A stretch of DNA of 14,487 nt from positions 1 through 14,487 of IMG/VR virus record IMGVR_UViG_2700989272_000004, one strand, 5' to 3'. Source of the stretch: a virus. Its lineage: Duplodnaviria; Heunggongvirae; Uroviricota; Caudoviricetes. Below the pieces are notes generated by a model. That model ran no database searches, was not told the origin of the DNA, and was given only the letters and a program-made list of their open reading frames with translations. The translations under genes and the position numbers were made by a program. Shown here in pieces: positions 3,084 through 14,487 of this stretch. How positions within the stretch are numbered: position 1 is the first letter of the stretch; each line of letters opens with the position of its first letter.

Positions 3084-6000
3084 ATGGGTAAAGGCAGCAG
3101 TAAGGGGCATACCCCGCGCGAAGCGAAGGACAACCTGAAGTCCACGCAGCTGCTGAGTGTGATCGATGCCATCAGCGAAGGGCCGGTTGAAGGTCCGGTG
3201 GACGGATTAAAAAGCGTGCTGCTGAACAGTACGCCGGTGCTGGACAGTGAGGGGAATACCAATATATCCGGCGTCACGGTGGTGTTCCGGACCGGTGAGC
3301 AGGAGCAGTCACCGCCGGAGGGATTTGAATCCTCCGGCTCCGAGACGGTGCTGGGTACGGAAGTGAAATATGACACGCCGATCACCCGGGCCATTACGTC
3401 TGCAAACATCGACCGTCTGCGCTTTACCTTCGGTGTACAGGCACTGGTGGAAACCACCTCAAAGGGGGACCGGAATCCGTCGGAAGTCCGCCTGCTGGTT
3501 CAGATACAGCGTAATGGTGGCTGGGTGACGGAAAAAGACATCACCATTAAGGGCAAAACCACCTCGCAGTATCTGGCCTCGGTGGTGGTGGATAACCTGC
3601 CGCCGCGCCCGTTCAATATACGGATGCGCAGGATGACGCCGGACAGCACCACAGACCAGCTGCAGAACAAAACGCTCTGGTCGTCATACACCGAAATCAT
3701 CGATGTGAAACAGTGCTACCCGAACACGGCCCTGGTCGGCGTGCAGGTGGATTCGGAGCAGTTCGGCAGCCAGCAGGTGAGCCGTAATTATCATCTGCGC
3801 GGGCGCATTCTGCAGGTGCCGTCGAACTATAACCCGCAGACGCGGCAATACAGCGGTATCTGGGATGGAACGTTTAAGCCAGCATACAGCAACAACATGG
3901 CCTGGTGTCTGTGGGATATGCTGACCCATCCGCGCTACGGCATGGGGAAACGTCTTGGTGCGGCGGATGTGGATAAATGGGCGCTGTATGTCATCGGCCA
4001 GTACTGCGACCAGTCGGTGCCGGACGGCTTTGGCGGCACGGAGCCGCGCATCACCTGTAATGCGTACCTGACCACACAGCGCAAGGCGTGGGATGTTCTC
4101 AGTGATTTCTGCTCGGCGATGCGCTGTATGCCGGTATGGAACGGGCAGACGCTGACGTTCGTGCAGGACCGACCGTCGGATAAGGTGTGGACCTATAACC
4201 GCAGTAATGTGGTGATGCCGGATGATGGCGCGCCGTTCCGCTACAGCTTCAGCGCCCTGAAGGACCGCCATAATGCCGTTGAGGTGAACTGGATTGACCC
4301 GGATAACGGCTGGGAGACGGCGACAGAGCTTGTGGAGGACACGCAGGCCATTGCCCGTTACGGTCGTAACGTCACGAAGATGGATGCCTTTGGCTGTACC
4401 AGCCGGGGGCAGGCACACCGCGCCGGGCTGTGGCTGATTAAAACGGAACTGCTGGAAATGCAGACCGTGGATTTCAGCGTGGGCGCAGAAGGGCTTCGCC
4501 ATGTGCCGGGCGATGTCATTGAAATCTGCGATGATGACTATGCCGGTATCAGCACCGGCGGGCGCGTGCTGGCGGTGAACAGCCAGACCCGGACGCTGAC
4601 GCTCGACCGTGAAATCACGCTGCCATCCTCCGGTACCACGCTGATAAGCCTGGTTGACGGAAGTGGCAATCCGGTCAGCGTGGAGGTTCAGTCCGTCACC
4701 GACGGTGTGAAGGTGAAAGTGAGCCGTGTTCCTGACGGCGTTGCCGGATACAGCATATGGGGGCTGAAGCTGCCGACGCTGCGCCAGCGCCTGTTCCGCT
4801 GTGTGAGTATCCGTGAGAACGATGACGGCACGTATGCCATCACTGCCGTGCAGCATGTACCGGAGAAAGAAGCCATCGTGGATAACGGGGCGCACTTTGA
4901 CGGCGACCAGAGCGGAACGGTAAACGGTGTCACGCCGCCAGCGGTGCAGCACCTGACCGCAGAAGTCACCGCAGACAGCGGGGAATACCAGGTGCTGGCG
5001 CGCTGGGACACGCCGAAGGTGGTGAAGGGCGTGAGTTTCCTGCTTCGCCTGACCGTGGCAGCGGATGACGGCAGTGAGCGGCTGGTCAGCACGGCCCGGA
5101 CGACGGAAACCACATACCGCTTCACGCAGCTGGCGCTGGGAAACTACAGGCTGACAGTCCGGGCGGCAAATGCCTGGGGACAGCAGGGCGATCCGGCATC
5201 GGTATCGTTCCGGATTGCCGCACCGGCAGCGCCGTCGCGGATTGAGCTGACGCCGGGCTATTTTCAGATAACCGCCACGCCGCATCTTGCCGTTTATGAT
5301 CCGACGGTACAGTTTGAGTTCTGGTTCTCGGAAAAGCGGATTGCGGATATCAGGCAGGTTGAAACCACAGCACGCTATCTTGGTACGGCGCTGTACTGGA
5401 TAGCCGCCAGTATCAATATCAAACCGGGCCATGATTATTACTTTTATATCCGCAGTGTGAACACCGTTGGCAAATCGGCATTTGTGGAGGCCGTCGGTCG
5501 GGCGAGCGATGATGCGGAAGGTTACCTGGATTTTTTCAAAGGCCAGATAACCGAATCCCATCTCGGCAAGGAGCTGCTGGAAAAAGTCGACCTGACGGAG
5601 GATAACGCCAGCAGACTGGAGGAGTTTTCGAAAGAGTGGAAAGACGCCAACGATAAATGGAATGCCATGTGGGGCGTCAAAATTGAGCAGACCAAAGACG
5701 GCAAACATTATGTCGCGGGGCTTGGCCTCAGCATGGAGGATACAGAGGAAGGCAAACTGAGCCAGTTTCTGGTTGCTGCTAACCGTATCGCGTTTATTGA
5801 CCCGGCAAACGGGAATGAAACGCCGATGTTTGTGGCGCAGGGCAACCAGATATTCATGAACGACGTGTTCCTCAAACGTCTGACGGCCCCCACCATTACC
5901 AGTGGTGGAAATCCACCGGTATTTTCCCTGACACCGGACGGAAAGCTGACCGCTAAAAATGCGGATATCAGTGGCAGTGTGAATGCGAACTCCGGGACGC

Positions 6001-6497
6001 TCAACAACGTCACGATAAATGAAAACTGTACGATTAAGGGCATGCTGGAGGCGAATCAGGTCAGAGGTGATTTTGTTAAAACAGTATCCAAATCATTCCC
6101 GAAAAAGGCTGGTACGTGGGGTAATACGGAAACACCAGACGGGACGGTTACAGTCACCATCAGCGATGATCATAACTTTGACCGTCAAATCATTATTCCG
6201 CCCATTATCTTTAACGGTATAGCGTATGACGCTCCGGGAAGTGGTGATAACCCGGGAGGTACAAGGTACACGGGGTATGGTTTTGAAGTTCGCAAAAACG
6301 GCGTATTAATCGCATCCAGAGAAACTAAAGGGGCCATTCCCGGTAGTTACAGTGCGGTTATTGATATGCCGAGTGGCAGGGGAAGCGTCACTCTGGAGTT
6401 TAAGATTTTCCAGAAAGGCAATCAGGGGGCAGGCAATATCACCGACTGTACGGTGATTGTGACCAAAAAGGCTGCTTCCGGTATCAGTATTCGTTGA
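3084..6497 (+). CDS. J: Central tail fibre / host-specificity protein J (1137 aa) with a diverged C-terminal receptor-binding domain
   Basis: ATG at 3084 preceded by GGAG/GAGGA. N-terminus [34 protein letters not shown] and most of the protein match lambda gpJ (1132 aa) from memory. The last ~150 aa (from about nt 6030) differ from the lambda C-terminus as I recall it, and the DNA there is visibly AT-richer. Confidence 0.95.
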
Positions 6498-6567: not shown

Positions 6568-7167
6568 ATGCGTAAAGTTTGTGCAGCCATTTTGTCCGCA
6601 GCCATCTGTCTGGTCGTATCCGGTGCGCCTGCATGGGCGTCTGAACATCAGTCCTCGCTGAGCGCGGGGTATCTTCATGCCTCGACGAACGTTCCCGGCA
6701 GCGATGATCTTAACGGGATTAACGTGAAATACCGTTATGAGTTTACGGACACGCTGGGGATGGTGACGTCATTCAGTTATGCAGAAGACAAGAATCGCCA
6801 GCTGACTCATTACAGCGATACCCGCTGGCATGAAGATTCCGTGCGTAACCGCTGGTTCAGCGTGATGGCGGGGCCGTCTGTGCGCGTGAATGAATGGTTC
6901 AGCGCGTATGCGATGGCGGGTGTGGCTTACAGCCGTATTTCTACTTTCTCCGGGGATTATCTCCGCGTAACTGACAACAAGGGGAAAACGCACGAAGTGC
7001 TGACCGGAAGTGATGACGGTCGCCGCAGCAACACGTCTCTGGCGTGGGGGACTGGCGTGCAGTTTAACCCGACCGAATCCGTGGCCATTGATATTGCTTA
7101 TGAAGGCTCCGGCAGTGGCGACTGGCGCACTGACGGTTTCATCGTGGGTGTCGGTTATAAGTTCTGA
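6568..7167 (+). CDS. lom: Lom-family outer-membrane beta-barrel protein (Ail/Lom/PagC family), 199 aa
   Basis: Signal-peptide-like N-terminus (MRKVCAAILSAAICLVVSGAPAWA). C-terminus AIDIAYEGSGSGDWRTDGFIVGVGYKF and GINVKYRYEFTD match lambda Lom from memory. Position directly after J is syntenic with lambda. Confidence 0.9.
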   Translation: MRKVCAAILSAAICLVVSGAPAWASEHQSSLSAGYLHASTNVPGSDDLNGINVKYRYEFTDTLGMVTSFSYAEDKNRQLTHYSDTRWHEDSVRNRWFSVMAGPSVRVNEWFSAYAMAGVAYSRISTFSGDYLRVTDNKGKTHEVLTGSDDGRRSNTSLAWGTGVQFNPTESVAIDIAYEGSGSGDWRTDGFIVGVGYKF

Positions 7168-7194
7168 TTAGCCAGGTAACACAGTGTTATGACA

Positions 7195-7220
7195 GCCCGC
7201 CGGTTCAGGCGGGCTTTTTT
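7195..7220 (+). terminator. Rho-independent terminator downstream of lom
   Basis: Stem GCCCGCC (7195-7201) / GGCGGGC (7208-7214), loop GGTTCA, followed by a T6 run (7215-7220). Confidence 0.75.
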
Positions 7221-7231
7221 GTGGGGTGAAT

Positions 7232-10200
7232 ATGGCAGTAAAGATTTCAGGTGTACTGAAAGACGGTGCAGGTAAACCGGTACAGAACTGCACAATCCAG
7301 CTGAAAGCAAAACGTAACAGCACCACGGTGGTGGTGAACACGGTGGCCTCAGAAAATCCGGATGAAGCCGGGCGTTACAGCATGGACGTTGAGTACGGTC
7401 AGTACAGCGTTATTCTGTTGGTGGAAGGCTTCCCGCCATCGCATGCCGGGACCATCACCGTGTATGAAGACTCACAACCGGGTACGCTGAATGATTTTCT
7501 TGGTGCCATGACGGAGGATGATGCCCGTCCGGAGGCACTGCGCCGCTTTGAACTGATGGTGGAAGAGGTGGCGCATAACGCGTCCGCAGTGGCACAGAAC
7601 ACGGCAGCCGCAAAGAAGTCAGCCAGCGATGCCGGCACATCTGCCCGTGAGGCGGCAACCCATGCAACCGATGCTGCAGGCTCAGCACGTGCCGCCAGCA
7701 CGTCAGCCGGACAGGCTGCATCATCTGCTCAGTCAGCATCTTCCAGCGCAGGAACGGCATCAACAAAGGCCACTGAAGCATTAAAAAGTGCTGCCGCTGC
7801 AGAGTCCTCAAAAAGCGCGGCAGCCACCAGTGCCGGTGCGGCGAAAACGTCAGAAACGAATGCCGCAGCATCACAACTATCAGCAGCCACTTCTGCATCC
7901 ACCGCGACCACGAAGGCGTCAGAAGCTGCCACCTCAGCCCGGGATGCGGCGGCCTCAAAAGAGGCAGCGAAATCATCAGAAACGAACGCATCATCAAGTG
8001 CCAGTAGTGCAGCTTCCTCGGCAACGGCGGCAGGAAATTCCGCGAAGGCCGCAAAAACGTCTGAGACGAATGCGGATAACAGCGCACAGGCGGCAGCAGA
8101 CTCACAAACTGCATCGGCAAACTCCGCGACAGCAGCCAAAAAATCAGAAACCAACGCGAAAAATAGCGAGGCAGCAGCAAAGAGCAGCGAAACAAACGCT
8201 AAAGCCAGCGAAACTAATGCTAAATCCAGTGAAACAAACGCGGCGAAATCTGCGGCGGACGCACTTAATTATCGCAACCAGGCGCAAGTAATTGTTGGGG
8301 GTAATATCGGTCTTGGCTCAGCTCCGCGTGATTGTCCTGATATTTCCGGCAACCCATCAGGGTATATCGGATTTATGCGTATTCGTGAAGCAGCCACTGG
8401 TTTTCCGTCCATTGCTTCAGGTGAGTCGTACTTAACAGGCTTTATTAGCGGTTGCGATGGTTCTCCTACATATGCGGGTATATTCCAGGGTTGGAATTCA
8501 AGATCCCTGTATACCTATCGCTGGTCGAGCGCCACAGGCCCGCAATGGACACGTCACGCAAGAAAGGATGAAGTTGACCGTCTTGACCAATGGAATAGCG
8601 AAACATGGTTATATAATCATGATAAATCCATGCGACTTGGTTTAACCGCCTCATCATGGGGTTGTTACAGCGACACACAAAAAAAATGGATACCACTTGA
8701 TGTTTCTCATGGTGGTACTGGTGCGGCAACTATTGATGGTGCAAGAACTAATCTTGGATTAGGCAGGGATAACAGCCCTCAACTTAACAGTCTATTTCTT
8801 GATAGATATAGTGATTCTACTGGCGCATACACTACTGGCGGAATGCTCCATACGAGGCTGTTAGCAAATGACAACACTGTGCGCCTTGCCGCTGATATGT
8901 ATGTTCAGACTTTTCCAAATGAGCAAGGTCGATTAACAATAAGGTTTACATACGGTGGTTCAACTGGTGCTACAAAATGTCTAGACCTTAACTCAGAAGG
9001 TAATTTAATTGTAGATAGTGCGATACTGAAATCAACGGTCGAAAAACCTTTACAAATAAATAGTGCTAACCCGGCAATAAGATTTAATGAAACAGATCGC
9101 CCGGCTAACACGCCTACTTATACTCTCATTGCTAATGCTGGCGACTGGTTTATTCAGAAACGCGATTATGATGATGCCGGAAGCGTTAGTAACGCAATTT
9201 CATATAATTTCGCAAACGACAGAATTGATGTGCAAAATCTTAAAGCGTCTGGGTTAATTACAGCTAACTCAGGAATCGCAACATTAACAGGTCATGACTG
9301 GAACGCTCAGCATACTGATAACGTCGACAAATTTAGACCAATCGCAGGCAGTACAAACGGCCCGGCAGGTTCTATGGTTCTTGGCGGCATTCATGTTCAA
9401 TTTAGTAAAAATTATGCTGTGCAGTTCGGAGGCCGCAATTCCGGTTTTTGGGGAAGAACAATTGAAAATGGAACGACGCAGGAATGGAAGAAATTACTAA
9501 CAGTAGACGATCTCAATTCATCTACCGATCTTGCTGTCAGGTCATTAACCACATCTAACCCGGTAAAATCTGGCGGAGGGCGAATTGATGTCCTTGGAAG
9601 CACGTCAGACTATAGCAAAATGGATTGCTTTGTACGTGGGTTTGATAGCACCGGTAATTCTCTCGCGTGGGCGTTGGGTTCATCAGTCGGCGTAAGTAAG
9701 ATGCTGTCGCTAAAAAATTTCTTTAGCGGAGCTGAGATACTGTTAAATGGTAATGACGGCGCGGTTCAACTCAAAACAGGTGCTGTTAACGGGGCTAAAG
9801 CGCAGACGCTCACTATCAACAAGGATGAGGTTAACTCAACTGTTGATTTAACTCTTACAAAACAAACAGGGACTGGAAATAGTTTTGTTTTACAGAACTT
9901 AGGTAATACAGAACTATCATTTGCCGCAAAAGTATGGGGATCAAGTGATCGACAAAACGTTTTTGAGGTTGGAACGTCTGCTGCGTATCTGTTTTATGCG
10001 CAAAAAACGTCAGCAGGCCAGTTGTTTGATGTAAATGGCGCTATTAATTGCACAACGCTGAATCAGTCATCAGACCGCGACCTTAAAGACGATATTCTCG
10101 TTATCAGCGACGCGACGAAAGCAATCCGTAAAATGAACGGATACACCTACACGCTCAGGGAAAACGGGATGCCTTATGCTGGCGTTATTGCACAGGAAGT

Positions 10201-10504
10201 AATGGAGGCGATACCAGAAGCTGTGGGATCGTTTACTCATTACGGTGAAGAGTTGCAGGGACCAACGGTTGACGGCAATGAATTACGTGAAGAAACACGT
10301 TATCTGAATGTTGACTACGCCGCCGTGACGGGGTTACTTGTTCAGGTCGCCCGTGAAACAGATGATCGCGTTACCGCGCTGGAAGAGGAAAACACAACGC
10401 TACGTCAAAATCTGGCAACAGCAGGCACCCGGATCAGCATTCTGGAAAATCAGGTAAGCGAACTGGTTGCACTTGTCCGGCAGTTAACAGGAAGCGAACA
10501 TTGA
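7232..10504 (+). CDS. stf: Side tail fibre protein, mosaic: lambda Stf-like N-terminus with Ser/Ala-rich repeats, novel C-terminal module ending in a peptidase-S74-like intramolecular chaperone domain
   Basis: ATG at 7232 with GGGGTG upstream (the ORF track starts at an in-frame GTG at 7226). N-terminal ~280 aa (MAVKISGVLKDGAGKPVQNCTIQLKAKRNSTTVVV...) match lambda Stf from memory. The C-terminal ~145 aa (SDRDLKDDILVISDATKAIRKMNGYTYT...LEEENTTLRQNLA...) resemble the self-cleaving chaperone domain of K1F endosialidase / T5 pb1-type fibres. DNA after about nt 8280 is visibly AT-richer. Confidence 0.88.
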   Translation: MAVKISGVLKDGAGKPVQNCTIQLKAKRNSTTVVVNTVASENPDEAGRYSMDVEYGQYSVILLVEGFPPSHAGTITVYEDSQPGTLNDFLGAMTEDDARPEALRRFELMVEEVAHNASAVAQNTAAAKKSASDAGTSAREAATHATDAAGSARAASTSAGQAASSAQSASSSAGTASTKATEALKSAAAAESSKSAAATSAGAAKTSETNAAASQLSAATSASTATTKASEAATSARDAAASKEAAKSSETNASSSASSAASSATAAGNSAKAAKTSETNADNSAQAAADSQTASANSATAAKKSETNAKNSEAAAKSSETNAKASETNAKSSETNAAKSAADALNYRNQAQVIVGGNIGLGSAPRDCPDISGNPSGYIGFMRIREAATGFPSIASGESYLTGFISGCDGSPTYAGIFQGWNSRSLYTYRWSSATGPQWTRHARKDEVDRLDQWNSETWLYNHDKSMRLGLTASSWGCYSDTQKKWIPLDVSHGGTGAATIDGARTNLGLGRDNSPQLNSLFLDRYSDSTGAYTTGGMLHTRLLANDNTVRLAADMYVQTFPNEQGRLTIRFTYGGSTGATKCLDLNSEGNLIVDSAILKSTVEKPLQINSANPAIRFNETDRPANTPTYTLIANAGDWFIQKRDYDDAGSVSNAISYNFANDRIDVQNLKASGLITANSGIATLTGHDWNAQHTDNVDKFRPIAGSTNGPAGSMVLGGIHVQFSKNYAVQFGGRNSGFWGRTIENGTTQEWKKLLTVDDLNSSTDLAVRSLTTSNPVKSGGGRIDVLGSTSDYSKMDCFVRGFDSTGNSLAWALGSSVGVSKMLSLKNFFSGAEILLNGNDGAVQLKTGAVNGAKAQTLTINKDEVNSTVDLTLTKQTGTGNSFVLQNLGNTELSFAAKVWGSSDRQNVFEVGTSAAYLFYAQKTSAGQLFDVNGAINCTTLNQSSDRDLKDDILVISDATKAIRKMNGYTYTLRENGMPYAGVIAQEVMEAIPEAVGSFTHYGEELQGPTVDGNELREETRYLNVDYAAVTGLLVQVARETDDRVTALEEENTTLRQNLATAGTRISILENQVSELVALVRQLTGSEH
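8180..8242 (+). repeat. Three tandem in-frame 21-bp repeats encoding K(S/A)SETNA heptads, inside a wider Ser/Ala-rich low-complexity tract (about 7590-8260) of stf
   Basis: Codons read KSSETNA-KASETNA-KSSETNA at 8180-8242. Further dispersed (K/A)(T/S)SETNA copies near 7847, 7970, 8055 and 8140. Confidence 0.8.
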
Positions 10505-10552
10505 TATCCTTCAAGCCCTGAAGGAGGCTGTTCCTGGTACGTTCAGACTGTT

Positions 10553-10675
10553 GTTGAGCTGGAGATCGCAACGGAGGAAGAAATCTCGTTGCTGGAAGCA
10601 TGGAAAACATATCGGGTATTGCTGAACCGTGTTGATACAGTAAACCCCGTCTGGCCTCCACCTTCGAAGCGATAG
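10553..10675 (+). pseudogene. 3'-terminal remnant of a tail fibre assembly gene (tfa), about 40 codons, no start codon
   Basis: Translation [40 protein letters not shown] matches the conserved Tfa C-terminus (lambda Tfa ends ...[36 protein letters not shown]... as I recall). It is in frame with, and 3' of, the stf TGA stop at 10502-10504. Confidence 0.65.
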
Positions 10676-10979
10676 CCCAGCAACTCCTAAATAGCTGCGC
10701 ATAATACCGCTACACCAGCCGTTTTACTGACATTTGGAATATTGCGTGAGGGCAACATATCGAGGGGCAGATACAGCTCGGTCAAATAGAAAAACAGCCC
10801 CACTATTTACCATGCAATAGCTGGTCAAAAGGAGAGCACTATTCCGCTCCGCGTAGTATTTTGTGTTTATAGTGATAACTTAGGTAATGCTTAGTCACTA
10901 AGATACTTTGCTATTGGAGAGCGATTTATAATGTGGGCGCAACAGATTTTTACTATTGCGCCACTTGCTCTTGTGAGTA

Positions 10980-12068
10980 CTATTCGCTATAAGTTAATGT
11001 TGGTTTTGAAAGTCTTTTGGATATTGTTTTTCCGATATTAATGAATGGAGTTTCAATATATTTATAAATAAAGAATGATAAGAACAAGCTAAGAGCAATA
11101 ATGAATGAAAACTTAGAAAACCCAGGTTTTTCATAAAGCGGAATGAAATCCTTAAAATTAATTAAAAATAGCATTACTATCGCATGGGATAAATACAGAG
11201 AGTAAGAGATATCACCTAGCTTACTGAGTATTTTATTTTCCCTTAATCCGAAGTTAACTTCATAAAGTAAAACTCCCGTAATTATGGAGGCTGCCCACAA
11301 TCCGAAGTTTAAAGGGCCATGACCAAATCTGAATTGATAAAAATATGAGCAAACACCAAATGAAACCAAAAGGAATGATATCGCCTTTGCGTTTTTTATA
11401 TGTTTAAATTTTCTGTGTATTATATACAGAAACATCCCATAAACGAATTCTAACAGCATGGGTGATGACATTAAGTTTAGAAAGCCAATATGCCAATGAC
11501 CTGTATCACCAATCGTAAACTTACTTGATAGAGAAAGGCTGTTGGAAAATTTCAACTGTATGAGAAGTAGCGGGACTATCAATGCAATAACTGATATTAA
11601 TAATCTGTTTTTATGACTCAGCGATATTGCAAGCATAAAAATGAAATAAAAATAGACTTCAAAGGTTAATGTCCATGCTGGATAAAGCACGTTGTATCCG
11701 AAGAATGGCGCTTCTGAATAATAGTCCAGGTGAAGCAGAAACAATGAACGCAATAATTCACTTTCGGTGAAGACCGGGTTCAATAAAAAGAATAAGATTG
11801 TGCAAATGAAAAATACAGGGTAAATCCTGAAAAAACGCCTGGTCATAAAGTTAATAGGGGAATTTGTTTCTTTTTTTTGACTCGATAGCATTATTATAAA
11901 TCCACTTATAATAAAAAACAGATCAACCCCAAAACCACCACTAATAAACAATAAATCACCTAGATCTTTTTGTGCGTAAACTTCATTTAGGTATTGTTTA
12001 TTGTGATATGCAACAACGAGTAATGCTGCTACACCTCGCAAATAGTGAATTGATTTTACCTTCTTCAT
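10980..12068 (-). CDS. Acyltransferase family 3 integral membrane protein (OafA/Oac-like; putative O-antigen/LPS O-acetyltransferase), 362 aa
   Basis: Signature motifs of the acyltransferase-3 family: YLRGVAALLVVAYH (R-x10-H), GVDLFFIISGF, FMTRRFFRIYP, GDISYSLYLSHA, YIETP. Highly hydrophobic throughout. DNA is strikingly AT-rich compared with the flanking phage genes. No obvious Shine-Dalgarno sequence. Confidence 0.88.
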   Translation of the reverse strand: MKKVKSIHYLRGVAALLVVAYHNKQYLNEVYAQKDLGDLLFISGGFGVDLFFIISGFIIMLSSQKKETNSPINFMTRRFFRIYPVFFICTILFFLLNPVFTESELLRSLFLLHLDYYSEAPFFGYNVLYPAWTLTFEVYFYFIFMLAISLSHKNRLLISVIALIVPLLLIQLKFSNSLSLSSKFTIGDTGHWHIGFLNLMSSPMLLEFVYGMFLYIIHRKFKHIKNAKAISFLLVSFGVCSYFYQFRFGHGPLNFGLWAASIITGVLLYEVNFGLRENKILSKLGDISYSLYLSHAIVMLFLINFKDFIPLYEKPGFSKFSFIIALSLFLSFFIYKYIETPFINIGKTISKRLSKPTLTYSE

Positions 12069-12282
12069 TTTTATATAATCACTGTTCCAATTTTTTTTAT
12101 TTTACAAACAATTCTATCTAGCTCATTAGTACTCAAAGTCAGATTGGTAGCAATAAAAAAACAAGATATGTGATGACATGGCGCGGGGCTCAGAACCACT
12201 CGTGTATTTTCGCCACTGGCTATGACTGGCTGCACCTGCAAGATCTGCCATTTGTGTGCCAGTATACCCAAGCTCTGACTTT

Positions 12283-12784
12283 ATGTTTACCAGATCCTCT
12301 GGAGTGCCGGGGAGTATAATCGTTGATTAATCGAATCTGCAACTATTTCAGAACGACCTAGGTTAAAGTGCGCTCTGCAGTCTCTTATATAAGGTGATAC
12401 TTTAATTGTCTGGAAACTGGACAGGTTAGGAAGGAGCAGGAAACATCTTATTATACTTACCGAGTAGCTGCGGGTAAGGGGGGGGGATTTCCGTAGCCTG
12501 ACAGGTAACATTGACACGTCAACACCGATGGTTTTTTTATTTTTCCATGTGATGGGGCCCTGGTTGAAATGAAGCGTGAACTGATTGATGACTGAACAAA
12601 AGTTGGACTGGAAGATGCTCGCGCACAGGGAGGAATTGGTGGACGTCGTCCTAAACTTACATCAGAACAATGGGCGCAGGCCGGGCGATTAATTGCATCA
12701 GGAGTTCCTCGCCAGAAGGTGGCGATCATCTATGATATTGGCATATCGACTTTGTATAAGAAGTTTCCGGTCGGAGATAAATGA
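12283..12784 (+). pseudogene. Decayed serine DNA invertase gene (Pin/Hin/Gin/Cin family) with frameshifts and in-frame stops
   Basis: Recognisable invertase segments lie in three different frames: ERPRLKCALQSLI*GDTLIVWKLDRLGRSRKHLIILTE (frame of 12393), DFRSLTGNIDTSTPM and FFHVMGALVEMKRELIDD* around 12487-12595, and an intact C-terminal helix-turn-helix GGIGGRRPKLTSEQWAQAGRLIASGVPRQKVAIIYDIGISTLYKKFPVGDK* (12629-12784). In-frame stops at 12390 and 12593. Confidence 0.75.
12478..12486 (+). repeat. G9 homopolymer tract inside the invertase pseudogene
   Basis: Nine consecutive G at 12478-12486. The invertase reading frame changes in this neighbourhood. Confidence 0.9.
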
Positions 12785-12887
12785 AACCGTAGCACGTCGT
12801 ATGCAAGAACGTGCCACGGCTGGCTGGCGAACTTTCGATAGTGCGAGTATTGAATGATTTCCAGCCGTTACCGATTTTACGTGTTAA

Positions 12888-13136
12888 TTAGTGAACAAAC
12901 CACTCGTCAGCAGATTCCCAGGTGTCTTTCAGAGTCTCCTGAACAAAAGTTTTTGCAGAATCCTTATCTGCGGTGCGTGTAACAGAAAGACCATCGTTGC
13001 TGGTGGCTTTTACGATCACCTCTACATCGTCATAACGTTTACTGATGCGTCGGGTTAATTCTTCCTTTAACGCATCCACAGCACCGGTTGGCATTTTAGT
13101 CATTTTTTCTTTGGCTATGCAGATTTCAATACGCAT
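12888..13136 (-). CDS. DinI-family protein (DNA-damage-inducible protein I-like), 82 aa
   Basis: [11 protein letters not shown]...[16 protein letters not shown] resembles E. coli DinI (MRIEVTIAK...ETWESADDWFV) as I recall it. GAGGGA Shine-Dalgarno 6 nt upstream of the ATG. Two LexA boxes in its promoter. Confidence 0.85.
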
Positions 13137-13149
13137 AAAAGTCCCTCTA

Positions 13150-13169
13150 TACTGTGTTTGTATACAGTA
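13150..13169 (-). promoter_or_regulatory. LexA (SOS) box 1, promoter-proximal, upstream of the dinI-like gene
   Basis: TACTGTGTTTGTATACAGTA: a perfect TACTG-N10-CAGTA palindrome, 14-33 nt upstream of the dinI-like start codon. Confidence 0.75.
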
Positions 13170-13171
13170 TT

Positions 13172-13201
13172 ATTTTTAACTGTATGGATAAACAGTGTCA
13201 A
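13172..13201 (-). promoter_or_regulatory. Putative sigma70 promoter of the dinI-like gene (-35 TTGACA, 17-nt spacer, -10 TAAAAAT)
   Basis: On the - strand: TTGACA (complement of 13196-13201), 17-nt spacer, TAAAAA(T) (complement of 13172-13178). The -35 overlaps the integrase stop codon at 13198-13200. Confidence 0.5.
13178..13197 (-). promoter_or_regulatory. LexA (SOS) box 2, lying in the spacer of the putative dinI-like promoter
   Basis: AACTGTATGGATAAACAGTG (CTGT-N8-ACAG core), centred about 28 bp from box 1. Confidence 0.65.
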
Positions 13202-14295
13202 GGGGTCTTATTTCTGCTCCTTTGGAGCTCTTCAAAACGATTATGTAAAGATTTCGGATACAGTTCGGTATATACCTGCCATAGCACGTTTAATGAACGA
13301 TGCCCTGTAACCTGGGCTACTTCCTCAATACTAAAACCAGCCTCAAATAAGCGACTTGCCCCTTCTCTACGCAAATCATGGTATCGCAGATCCTTAATAC
13401 CTAATTTGCTTCTTACCCTCTGAAATCCCGCAGTAACAGAAGTGCTGTTATATGGAAAAATGAATTCCGATTTTTTGGGCTGTCGTTGGACGATATCCCA
13501 GGCTTCCCCAAGCAAGGCTACTTTCATGTGGTTGCCTTCCTTTTTGCGTGGATCTTTCCTGTCTCTTACGAGTATAGATTTTTGTTCCTGGTCGAGATCT
13601 TCCCATCGTAACCGGCATACTTCTCCGATTCGCATACAGGACCACACAGAAAATTTGAGGATATCAACGAACGGAATTTTTGAGCATTTATGAGTAGATC
13701 GTTGTTGAAGGCCTTCAATGAGCATGTCCAGTTCATCAGATGCTGGTCTACGATTACGACGGTTTGATTTACCAATCAAACCAAGTTTAAGTAGATATGG
13801 ACGAGCACTTTTCGCCGGGTTTGATGTGTAATTAATTCCGTATACAGGTTTGGCCGCATCCAGAACACTGCCAAGATAACTAACATCGTGGCTGACTGTT
13901 GCTGGACCTGCGCCAGCGTTGTTTCTTAGCCTGCAATGTTCAATTACGTCATTTTCTGTCAGTTCAGATAGTTTGATCGCGGAGATGTCACTATCCATAA
14001 GCAGTTCCAGCACATATCTTTTAGTACGGCCTGCTTTACCTCCGGCATTTGGGTCATTTAAATATTTGTGTAGTAAGTCACGGACTGTAAGTCCGTCAAC
14101 TGCATTTGATGATGGAATGCCATATAGATCTAATTCCATCACTTTCTGTGTGCCCCATGTTTTGGCATGAGCATGTTTAGGGAATGTTTTGCTTTCCCTG
14201 TAAGTGATAACACCTTTTTCTTTGATAATCACATTACAGCGATAGCGTGGTGTGCCATCGGATTTTAGTCGTTTCTCTATGTTATAGTACGCCAT
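13198..14295 (-). CDS. int: Tyrosine recombinase / phage integrase, 365 aa
   Basis: 365-aa ORF with GAGG Shine-Dalgarno 8 nt upstream. C-terminal catalytic-domain motifs typical of tyrosine integrases: LRYHDLRREGASRL (H-x-x-R) and VTGHRSLNVLWQVYTELY (His plus nucleophilic Tyr). Confidence 0.92.
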   Translation of the reverse strand: MAYYNIEKRLKSDGTPRYRCNVIIKEKGVITYRESKTFPKHAHAKTWGTQKVMELDLYGIPSSNAVDGLTVRDLLHKYLNDPNAGGKAGRTKRYVLELLMDSDISAIKLSELTENDVIEHCRLRNNAGAGPATVSHDVSYLGSVLDAAKPVYGINYTSNPAKSARPYLLKLGLIGKSNRRNRRPASDELDMLIEGLQQRSTHKCSKIPFVDILKFSVWSCMRIGEVCRLRWEDLDQEQKSILVRDRKDPRKKEGNHMKVALLGEAWDIVQRQPKKSEFIFPYNSTSVTAGFQRVRSKLGIKDLRYHDLRREGASRLFEAGFSIEEVAQVTGHRSLNVLWQVYTELYPKSLHNRFEELQRSRNKTP

Positions 14296-14314
14296 TACAC
14301 GACCTCGTTATTTC

Positions 14315-14350
14315 GGGTTCCCATAAAACGTGGGAACCTGTGCGGGAACC
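14315..14350. other. Inverted/direct GGGAACC repeat cluster upstream of int (possible protein-binding sites or 5'-UTR hairpin)
   Basis: GGGTTCCCA (14315-14323) and TGGGAACC (14331-14338) form an 8-bp-stem hairpin with a 7-nt loop. A third GGGAACC copy at 14344-14350. Confidence 0.3.
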
Positions 14351-14487
14351 TAACGCGAGAAAAATAGCCTGAAATGTTCAAAAATGCACGATAATCATGA
14401 AACACAAAAAATTAATCAAACCAGCGTGATGCCTGAAAAAACTGGTGTTTACTGGAATTCTCGGTTTAGCATTGCTCCTATGCTCGA

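Follow-up and report, generated by a model that had tools for sequence, protein, structure and literature searches.

A probable 3' remnant of tfa directly downstream of a Peptidase_S74-type stf gene in a lambdoid prophage

The DNA analysed here (14,487 nucleotides, referred to as the window) comes from a lambdoid prophage and spans the right arm of its tail region, where the side tail fibre gene stf is followed directly by a short piece of a tail fibre assembly gene, tfa. The piece occupies 10542-10639 on the plus strand, retains about 32 codons from within the C-terminal helical domain that is conserved in Tfa, and is best read as a non-functional tfa 3' fragment, a pseudogene left by acquisition of a fibre tip carrying its own Peptidase_S74 chaperone and without a selected coding function; we put the probability of this reading at roughly 0.9. 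An earlier note on this DNA, made from the letters of the sequence, had proposed a 3' relic of an stf-tfa pair left by recombination that brought in a new distal fibre module, and this proposal is supported, with corrections, by a Caudo_TAP profile match and by comparison of the phages PhiR70_1 and ev099.

The stf gene and the tfa-derived segment behind it

Gene content of the window, from the open reading frame list and Pfam, comprises the end of the tape-measure gene, the tail genes M, L, K and I, and J (3084-6497), followed by lom (6568-7167), stf (7232-10504, plus strand; supported by the reading frame list, the translation and Pfam), an acyltransferase (O-acetyltransferase) gene on the minus strand (10980-12068), a DinI-like gene (12888-13136) and an integrase gene (13198-14295). 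Among isolated phages mEp460 is the closest, with blastn matches at 93-98% identity in the blocks 6630-8752, 9287-10639 and 12784-14487. No tRNA or suppressor genes were found within the window, and the minus-strand open reading frame at 10511-10702 (63 aa) matched no Pfam family.

The stf product is 1090 aa long from ATG 7232 (the mechanical open reading frame list begins at GTG 7226 instead) and is 94-98% identical, in blocks, to that of mEp460 stf. It consists of an N-terminal lambda-type phage_tail_N domain (PF08400, E = 1.1e-71 in Pfam), a Ser/Ala-rich shaft, a receptor-binding region and a C-terminal Peptidase_S74 intramolecular chaperone domain at 10070-10501 (plus strand, 144 aa from the SDRDLK motif at aa 947). 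Assignment to Peptidase_S74 is based on a terminal profile match (PF13884, E = 8.2e-13, aa 949-1000 of 1092 in Pfam) and on the S-D-x-x-x-K catalytic Ser-Lys dyad motif, here SDRDLK at aa 947-952, which aligns with SSDRRIKKDI of S16 gp37 (PDB 6f45) and leaves 144 residues past the predicted cleavage site. PHROG tail-fibre profiles align this domain to their last, extreme C-terminal positions, and it shares 80-83% protein identity with the fibre ends of mEp044 and MagusPhagus. Characterised homologues release their S74 domain from the fibre by autoproteolysis after folding, and the domain of Stf is predicted by homology to do likewise once the fibre has trimerised. The role of the SDxxxK motif is credited to Schulz et al. 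2010, as cited in PMC9608196. C-terminal intramolecular chaperones and separate Tfa proteins are alternative solutions (PMC9608196; bioRxiv 10.1101/2024.09.12.612763). No Tfa is encoded downstream of stf, in agreement with the earlier claim that the chaperone had been lost, and its loss would be explained by the Peptidase_S74 domain at the Stf C-terminus.

The stf stop codon is TGA at 10502-10504, with T as the next base, and the same frame continues open past it on the plus strand, as the sequence and the reading frame list both confirm. The continuation had been given as 57 sense codons; counting yields 56 (10505-10672), followed by TAG at 10673-10675. When compared with Pfam, the 56-aa translation matched PF02413 (Caudo_TAP) with E = 1.5e-11 and 45 bits (gathering score 22.1), the match spanning profile positions 87-127 of 131 only. 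PHROG tail-fibre-assembly families matched it near their C-terminal ends (E = 1e-9 to 1e-10), and the Tfa proteins of lambda, 2H10 and ev099 align with it at their C-termini. Blastn searches of phages and of 5426 complete E. coli genomes confined the DNA homology with tfa to 10542-10639. The earlier note had staked its reading on similarity to Tfa C-termini, and the Caudo_TAP match provides it. That note had also placed a conserved Tfa C-terminus at the very end of the open frame, of which the Tfa homology stands and the last 12 codons most likely do not belong to Tfa (see below).

The remnant lies directly 3' of stf, the same place that tfa occupies in lambda, 2H10 and ev099. Tfa is composed of a variable N-terminal fibre-binding domain and a conserved C-terminal helical domain with a proposed role in trimerisation (PMC9608196), and the remnant corresponds to part of the latter only. 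It thereby has the profile match and the fibre-gene-adjacent location expected of a Tfa family member, and has neither the full-length two-domain protein nor its own start codon and ribosome-binding site. The absence of a start codon, as previously noted, was confirmed, with 0 in-frame ATG, GTG or TTG codons in 10505-10672. The accompanying statement that there is no ribosome-binding site overlooked a strong Shine-Dalgarno-like AAGGAGG at 10521-10527, 3' of which no start codon was found at a usable distance, the sole candidate being the out-of-frame CTG at 10534, which opens a 7-codon reading frame. AAGGAGG is invariant in the four copies aligned (the window, mEp460, Ayreon and PhiR70_1), a point that weighs against the pseudogene reading.

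The in-frame position of the remnant is unremarkable and within chance, as the chance of such a relic falling in the stf frame is about 1/3 multiplied by about 0.56 (for 12 stop-free linker codons), or about 0.2. Recurrence of the in-frame layout in other genomes is no independent evidence, because all copies descend from one junction.

The joint, the linker and the distribution of the junction

The position of the joint was determined by comparing PhiR70_1, which has the S74-type stf followed by the remnant, with ev099, which has an intact stf-tfa pair. The two phages are 98.97% identical over 3098 bp, running rightwards exactly from the equivalent of 10542, and are unrelated to the left of it; the joint of the module replacement is therefore placed at 10541/10542. 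This comparison with a relative carrying an intact pair, which the earlier note had asked for, both supports the remnant and fixes the joint. The claim that the locus marks the right-hand crossover is accordingly kept as regards a joint of module replacement and corrected as regards its position, which is at 10541/10542 rather than at the stop codon.

Between the S74 module and the remnant lies a stretch at 10505-10541 (plus strand) containing AAGGAGG at 10521-10527 and a 7-bp hairpin at 10507-10525. On the left, homology with other S74 fibre ends, those of mEp044 and MagusPhagus, stops at approximately 10498; the fibre genes of both phages end ...LTGSEK-TAA, with a terminator directly after. 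The interval from 10499 or 10505 to 10541 is thus, on these alignments, a linker outside both the S74 and the tfa homology. Blastn-short of this linker against 62 loci gave chance matches of 10-11 nt only. Likewise, a search of 5.8 billion proteins with the 56-aa query returned short partial Tfa entries only, and no full-length Tfa carrying the linker residues, among the 120 of 188 matches listed. Pairing by MAFFT of the linker residues SPEG..G..W with lambda Tfa residues ~101-115 was rejected as a chance alignment without DNA support. Two substitutions were seen in the 12 linker codons, P/S and W/R, both of them non-synonymous.

The distribution of the junction was measured with a 96-nt query (10465-10560), which was found at full length and at least 96.8% identity in 802 of 5426 complete E. 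coli genomes (~15%), at 1376 places and with a median of two per carrier genome. The same TGA-linker-relic junction is present in three isolated phages (mEp460, Ayreon and PhiR70_1) and in 50 IMG/VR contigs, which points to a single old junction that this prophage inherited and did not itself make. That mEp460 and Ayreon are viable is no proof of a fibre that functions in the absence of Tfa, since lambda can dispense with its side fibres under laboratory conditions. When GTDB (one genome per species) was scanned for an exact 21-mer, 0 matches were returned, so the junction seems limited to E. coli and Shigella, although exact matching makes this a weak test. A scan of IMG/VR that allowed any stop codon recovered no contigs beyond those already found, and TGA stood in 49 of 49 of them, a constancy that is uninformative in copies descended from one junction.

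The remnant is an ordinary pseudogene that public annotation already knows. RefSeq PGAP labels the junction "tail fiber assembly protein, incomplete, missing N-terminus", as in E. coli J31, CV839-06 and 2024CK-00475, and NCBI holds "tail fiber assembly protein, partial" entries with the same or nearly the same sequence.

Mosaicism, the right edge and rival readings

Copies of the remnant differ at their 3' ends and in what follows, with 20 tail variants and 14 distinct downstream contexts. In five tail types the same tails occur with both main linker haplotypes, a violation of the four-gamete test within ~140 nt, and the tails of the remnant are ones also seen on intact Tfa, such as PAVPVME (lambda), PALP (2H10) and PVAPIG (ev099). 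Homology among the copies always ends ~140 nt past the TGA, at the end of the remnant. The corresponding ~98-nt tfa 3' segment was found in 5296 of 5426 E. coli genomes (98%), at 17465 places with a median of 3 copies, and the remnant is 85-92% identical to E. coli tfa 3' ends. The simplest reading of these patterns is that the remnant and resident tfa genes have repeatedly exchanged sequence by homologous recombination, which would refresh the remnant and shuffle the downstream DNA; the many 3' tails and neighbours would then exist because the remnant keeps recombining with near-ubiquitous tfa 3' ends. The frame is open to the natural Tfa stop in 54 of 57 copies (two others are cut by contig ends and one is frameshifted), as would be expected equally from a young junction with gene conversion by intact tfa and from purifying selection. 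The open frame does not establish selection, because there is one junction, both linker changes are non-synonymous and the right half is mosaic.

In the window itself the remnant ends at 10639. Immediately past the GATACA ending there, the window diverges from mEp460, Ayreon and PhiR70_1, and homology with every tfa stops at the same base. What follows is a low-GC (~32%) moron cassette at 10640-12783, recognised from blastn against mEp460, composition, Pfam and PHROG, which carries the O-acetyltransferase gene (Acyl_transf_3, E = 9e-35 in Pfam; O-acetyltransferase, E = 2.9e-71 in PHROG). Relative to mEp460 it replaces 59 bp, and homology returns at 12784 by blastn; its left edge falls inside the tfa remnant. 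The end of the open frame, 10640-10675 on the plus strand with its stop TAG at 10673-10675, is most likely, judging from these boundaries, sequence of the acetyltransferase cassette and not of Tfa. This tail and the cassette were found together in only 32 E. coli genomes, and in the protein database the tail occurred, among the matches listed, in short partial proteins only. No intact Tfa with this tail was found, and three inspected of the 32 genomes carry the remnant or a deletion.

Of the ways in which the region might still be expressed, readthrough of the UGA would give a minor form of Stf with 56 more residues, including the Tfa helical oligomerisation segment, that could aid trimerisation. 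In its favour, the 56 codons continue the stf frame without a stop, that frame is intact in nearly all copies behind a stop that is always TGA, the leakiest stop in E. coli, and the Tfa C-terminal domain has been proposed to mediate trimerisation (PMC9608196). Against this, descent from one junction makes conservation of frame and TGA uninformative, and both substitutions in the linker codons change the residue. Furthermore, the stop lies in a UGA-U context, which is generally held to be an efficient terminator and is reportedly (Poole et al. 1995) the least leaky of the UGA-N contexts. No structured element was detected downstream (fold z = 0.55 relative to shuffles) and no SECIS or other Rfam element was found, the one Rfam match being a sub-threshold match to IS009 (see below). 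In related S74 fibres the gene stops with TAA at the equivalent residue and a terminator follows. The tail would moreover sit on a discarded fragment and not on the mature fibre, because the S74 domain is predicted by homology to be cleaved off as it is in its characterised relatives, and the last part of the extension in this window most likely derives from the cassette. That readthrough matters here is consequently very unlikely. Separate translation of the remnant as a protein of ~38-45 aa, from AAGGAGG and a non-canonical start, is scarcely credible: AAGGAGG does not vary among the aligned copies and an NCBI entry models a product beginning MEIATEEE..., apparently from CTG 10559-10561, but the distance of 31 nt between that CTG and the Shine-Dalgarno sequence is too great, the other CTG, at 10534, is in the wrong frame, the frame has none of the usual start codons, and the product would be a fragment without the fibre-binding N-terminal domain. 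It is also highly doubtful that an IS009-type (Rfam) small RNA is made from this region, for instance by processing of the stf 3' UTR. Using cmscan, RF02111 was matched at 10444-10644 with E = 1.3e-19 over the full span of the model, and an association of this family with prophage regions has been reported (bioRxiv 10.64898/2026.05.13.724894). The match, however, scores 83.6 bits and falls below the family gathering score of 117, and the model consensus is tfa 3' coding sequence. Only the 3', largely unpaired half aligns well (10542-10644), the 5' half being aligned with low posterior probability to unrelated stf sequence. The fold is no better than that of shuffles (z = 0.55), and no promoter-like or terminator-like sites were found in 10300-11100. 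RF02111, a candidate E. coli prophage small RNA, has as its 5' half the upstream tfa sequence that is absent from the window, and we regard the match as probable coding homology and not as evidence of a small RNA.

A different kind of function, tentative and in our view improbable without being far-fetched, is that the remnant has been kept as a right-hand homology arm, by which the S74 fibre cassette and downstream morons are moved into tfa-bearing lambdoid prophages, with selection acting through spread of the cassette and not through coding. Consistent with this are the single invariant left junction set against the 20 tails, the 14 contexts and the four-gamete violations, the presence of a matching segment in nearly every E. 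coli genome, the constant end of homology at the end of the remnant, the isogenic state of PhiR70_1 and ev099 to its right, and the boundary of the acetyltransferase cassette inside it. Recombination is nevertheless expected at any homologous segment that happens to be retained, without selection for its retention, and ~100 bp of neutral DNA would last this long anyway. Were the homology-arm account true, loss of the remnant would put a cassette at a disadvantage in spreading, relative to cassettes that retain it. The reading preferred here remains that of a tfa 3' fragment without a selected coding function, which recombines with resident tfa genes.

Proposed history and comparison with known systems

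The history that we propose begins with an ancestral lambdoid phage in which distal stf and most of tfa would have been swapped for a fibre tip with its own Peptidase_S74 chaperone. The right-hand joint would have been illegitimate and would have fallen ~100 bp before the end of tfa, leaving a linker of 37-43 nt. With the S74 domain making a separate Tfa needless, the remnant would have had no selected coding function, would probably not be expressed, and would lie in the stf frame by accident. The block formed by the S74 end, the linker and the remnant would later have spread among E. coli prophages, with the remnant continuing to recombine with the tfa 3' ends of nearly every E. coli genome. 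In a later event in this window, the O-acetyltransferase cassette would have been set at 10640, cutting off the natural end of tfa. Homology, boundaries, distribution and mosaicism are observed here, and the direction and order of these events are inferred.

The remnant has little importance alone, and its use is as a marker of the joint that would have turned a Tfa-dependent lambda-type fibre into a self-chaperoning S74 fibre, a single joint that ~15% of the E. coli genomes sequenced now carry. It is also an example of how fibre tips and lysogenic-conversion cassettes are exchanged repeatedly at the conserved tfa 3' end. For annotation, the open stretch past stf should be neither merged into stf nor called a gene, and Rfam IS009 matches at such sites should be taken to reflect tfa coding homology.

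Compared with members of the Tfa/Caudo_TAP family (lambda Tfa, Mu gpU and E. coli TfaQ/TfaR), the remnant has the conserved C-terminal helical segment and the position adjacent to a fibre gene, but only ~32 of the ~194 codons of a functional Tfa are left; the fibre-binding N-terminal domain and the start codon are missing from it and, in this window, so is the natural C-terminal tail. With K1F endosialidase, the T5 L-shaped fibre pb1 and S16 gp37, Stf has in common the S74 domain, the SDxxxK motif and their terminal position, and differs in that the domain sits on a lambda-type Stf N-terminus and in that its autocleavage is a prediction. Tfa pseudogenes of cryptic prophages, as annotated by RefSeq PGAP, are the same kind of object, and among these are presumably the K-12 tfa remnants tfaD, tfaX and tfaS; the remnant described here differs in being joined to an intact, apparently functional S74-type stf and in occurring on isolated phages as well. 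Mosaic module boundaries and horizontal exchange of tail-fibre genes have reportedly been described among lambdoid, P2, Mu and T-even phages (Haggard-Ljungquist 1992; Sandmeier 1994; Hendrix and Duda 1992, the last as cited in PMC9608196). There, exchange likewise takes place at a conserved segment beside a variable receptor-binding module, whereas at this locus the conserved flank survives only as a non-coding remnant.

Mosaic composition of stf

The mechanically called stf ORF begins with GTG at 7226; the true start is likely the ATG at 7232, the first codon of the lambda-type start MAVKISGVLKDG. Phage mEp460 matches the window at 6630-8752 and again at 9287-10639, with no match in between (8753-9286), and the match to phage PhiR70_1 ends at 9252 and resumes only at 10061 (gap 9253-10060), from which point it covers the C-terminal S74 chaperone domain and the tfa remnant (10542-10639). 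These alignments show that stf itself is a mosaic, whose receptor-binding part is swapped independently of the S74 end.

The linker and the tfa remnant

Within the linker (10505-10541), a 7-bp hairpin (UCCUUCA...UGAAGGA, 10507-10525) overlaps a consensus Shine-Dalgarno sequence, AAGGAGG (10521-10527), downstream of which there is no usable start codon. The hairpin and AAGGAGG site are unchanged across the window, mEp460, Ayreon and PhiR70_1. The linker and remnant sequence is also present behind different upstream sequence that provides an ATG, in the database proteins P0006 (Shigella sonnei) and P0023, with MSSQIKHSPGNPGRFSSRYVQTV... being one of the two ATG-supplying upstream variants; these arrangements may represent secondary rearrangements or IS insertions that produce small chimeric ORFs. 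In some genomes stf is wholly deleted and a lom fragment directly adjoins a tfa remnant (E. coli AR_0369, fetched locus L009, 4214-4546). Protein P0059, an NCBI cluster of 268 members matching Pfam Ail_Lom and Caudo_TAP (the Tfa family), is a lom-tfa fusion ORF.

Rfam family IS009 (RF02111) matched at 10444-10644 below threshold, at 83.6 bits vs a gathering score of 117. Because the family consensus is the sequence of the tfa 3' end, coding or pseudogene sequence of tfa may account for most IS009 matches in prophages.

The O-acetyltransferase cassette and the DinI-integrase end

A low-GC cassette (~32%, 10640-12783) stands where mEp460 has 59 bp of other sequence, its left edge lying within the tfa remnant, and carries an O-acetyltransferase gene on the minus strand (10980-12068; Acyl_transf_3, PHROG O-acetyltransferase). 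A total of 32 complete E. coli genomes share this cassette. The four that were inspected have a recombinase pseudogene plus McrBC-like genes after it, instead of DinI and integrase genes. No tRNA gene was found in the window, which beyond the cassette carries a DinI-like gene (12888-13136) and an integrase gene (13198-14295), both on the minus strand; this segment (12784-14487) is 98.2% identical to the DinI-like and integrase region of mEp460.
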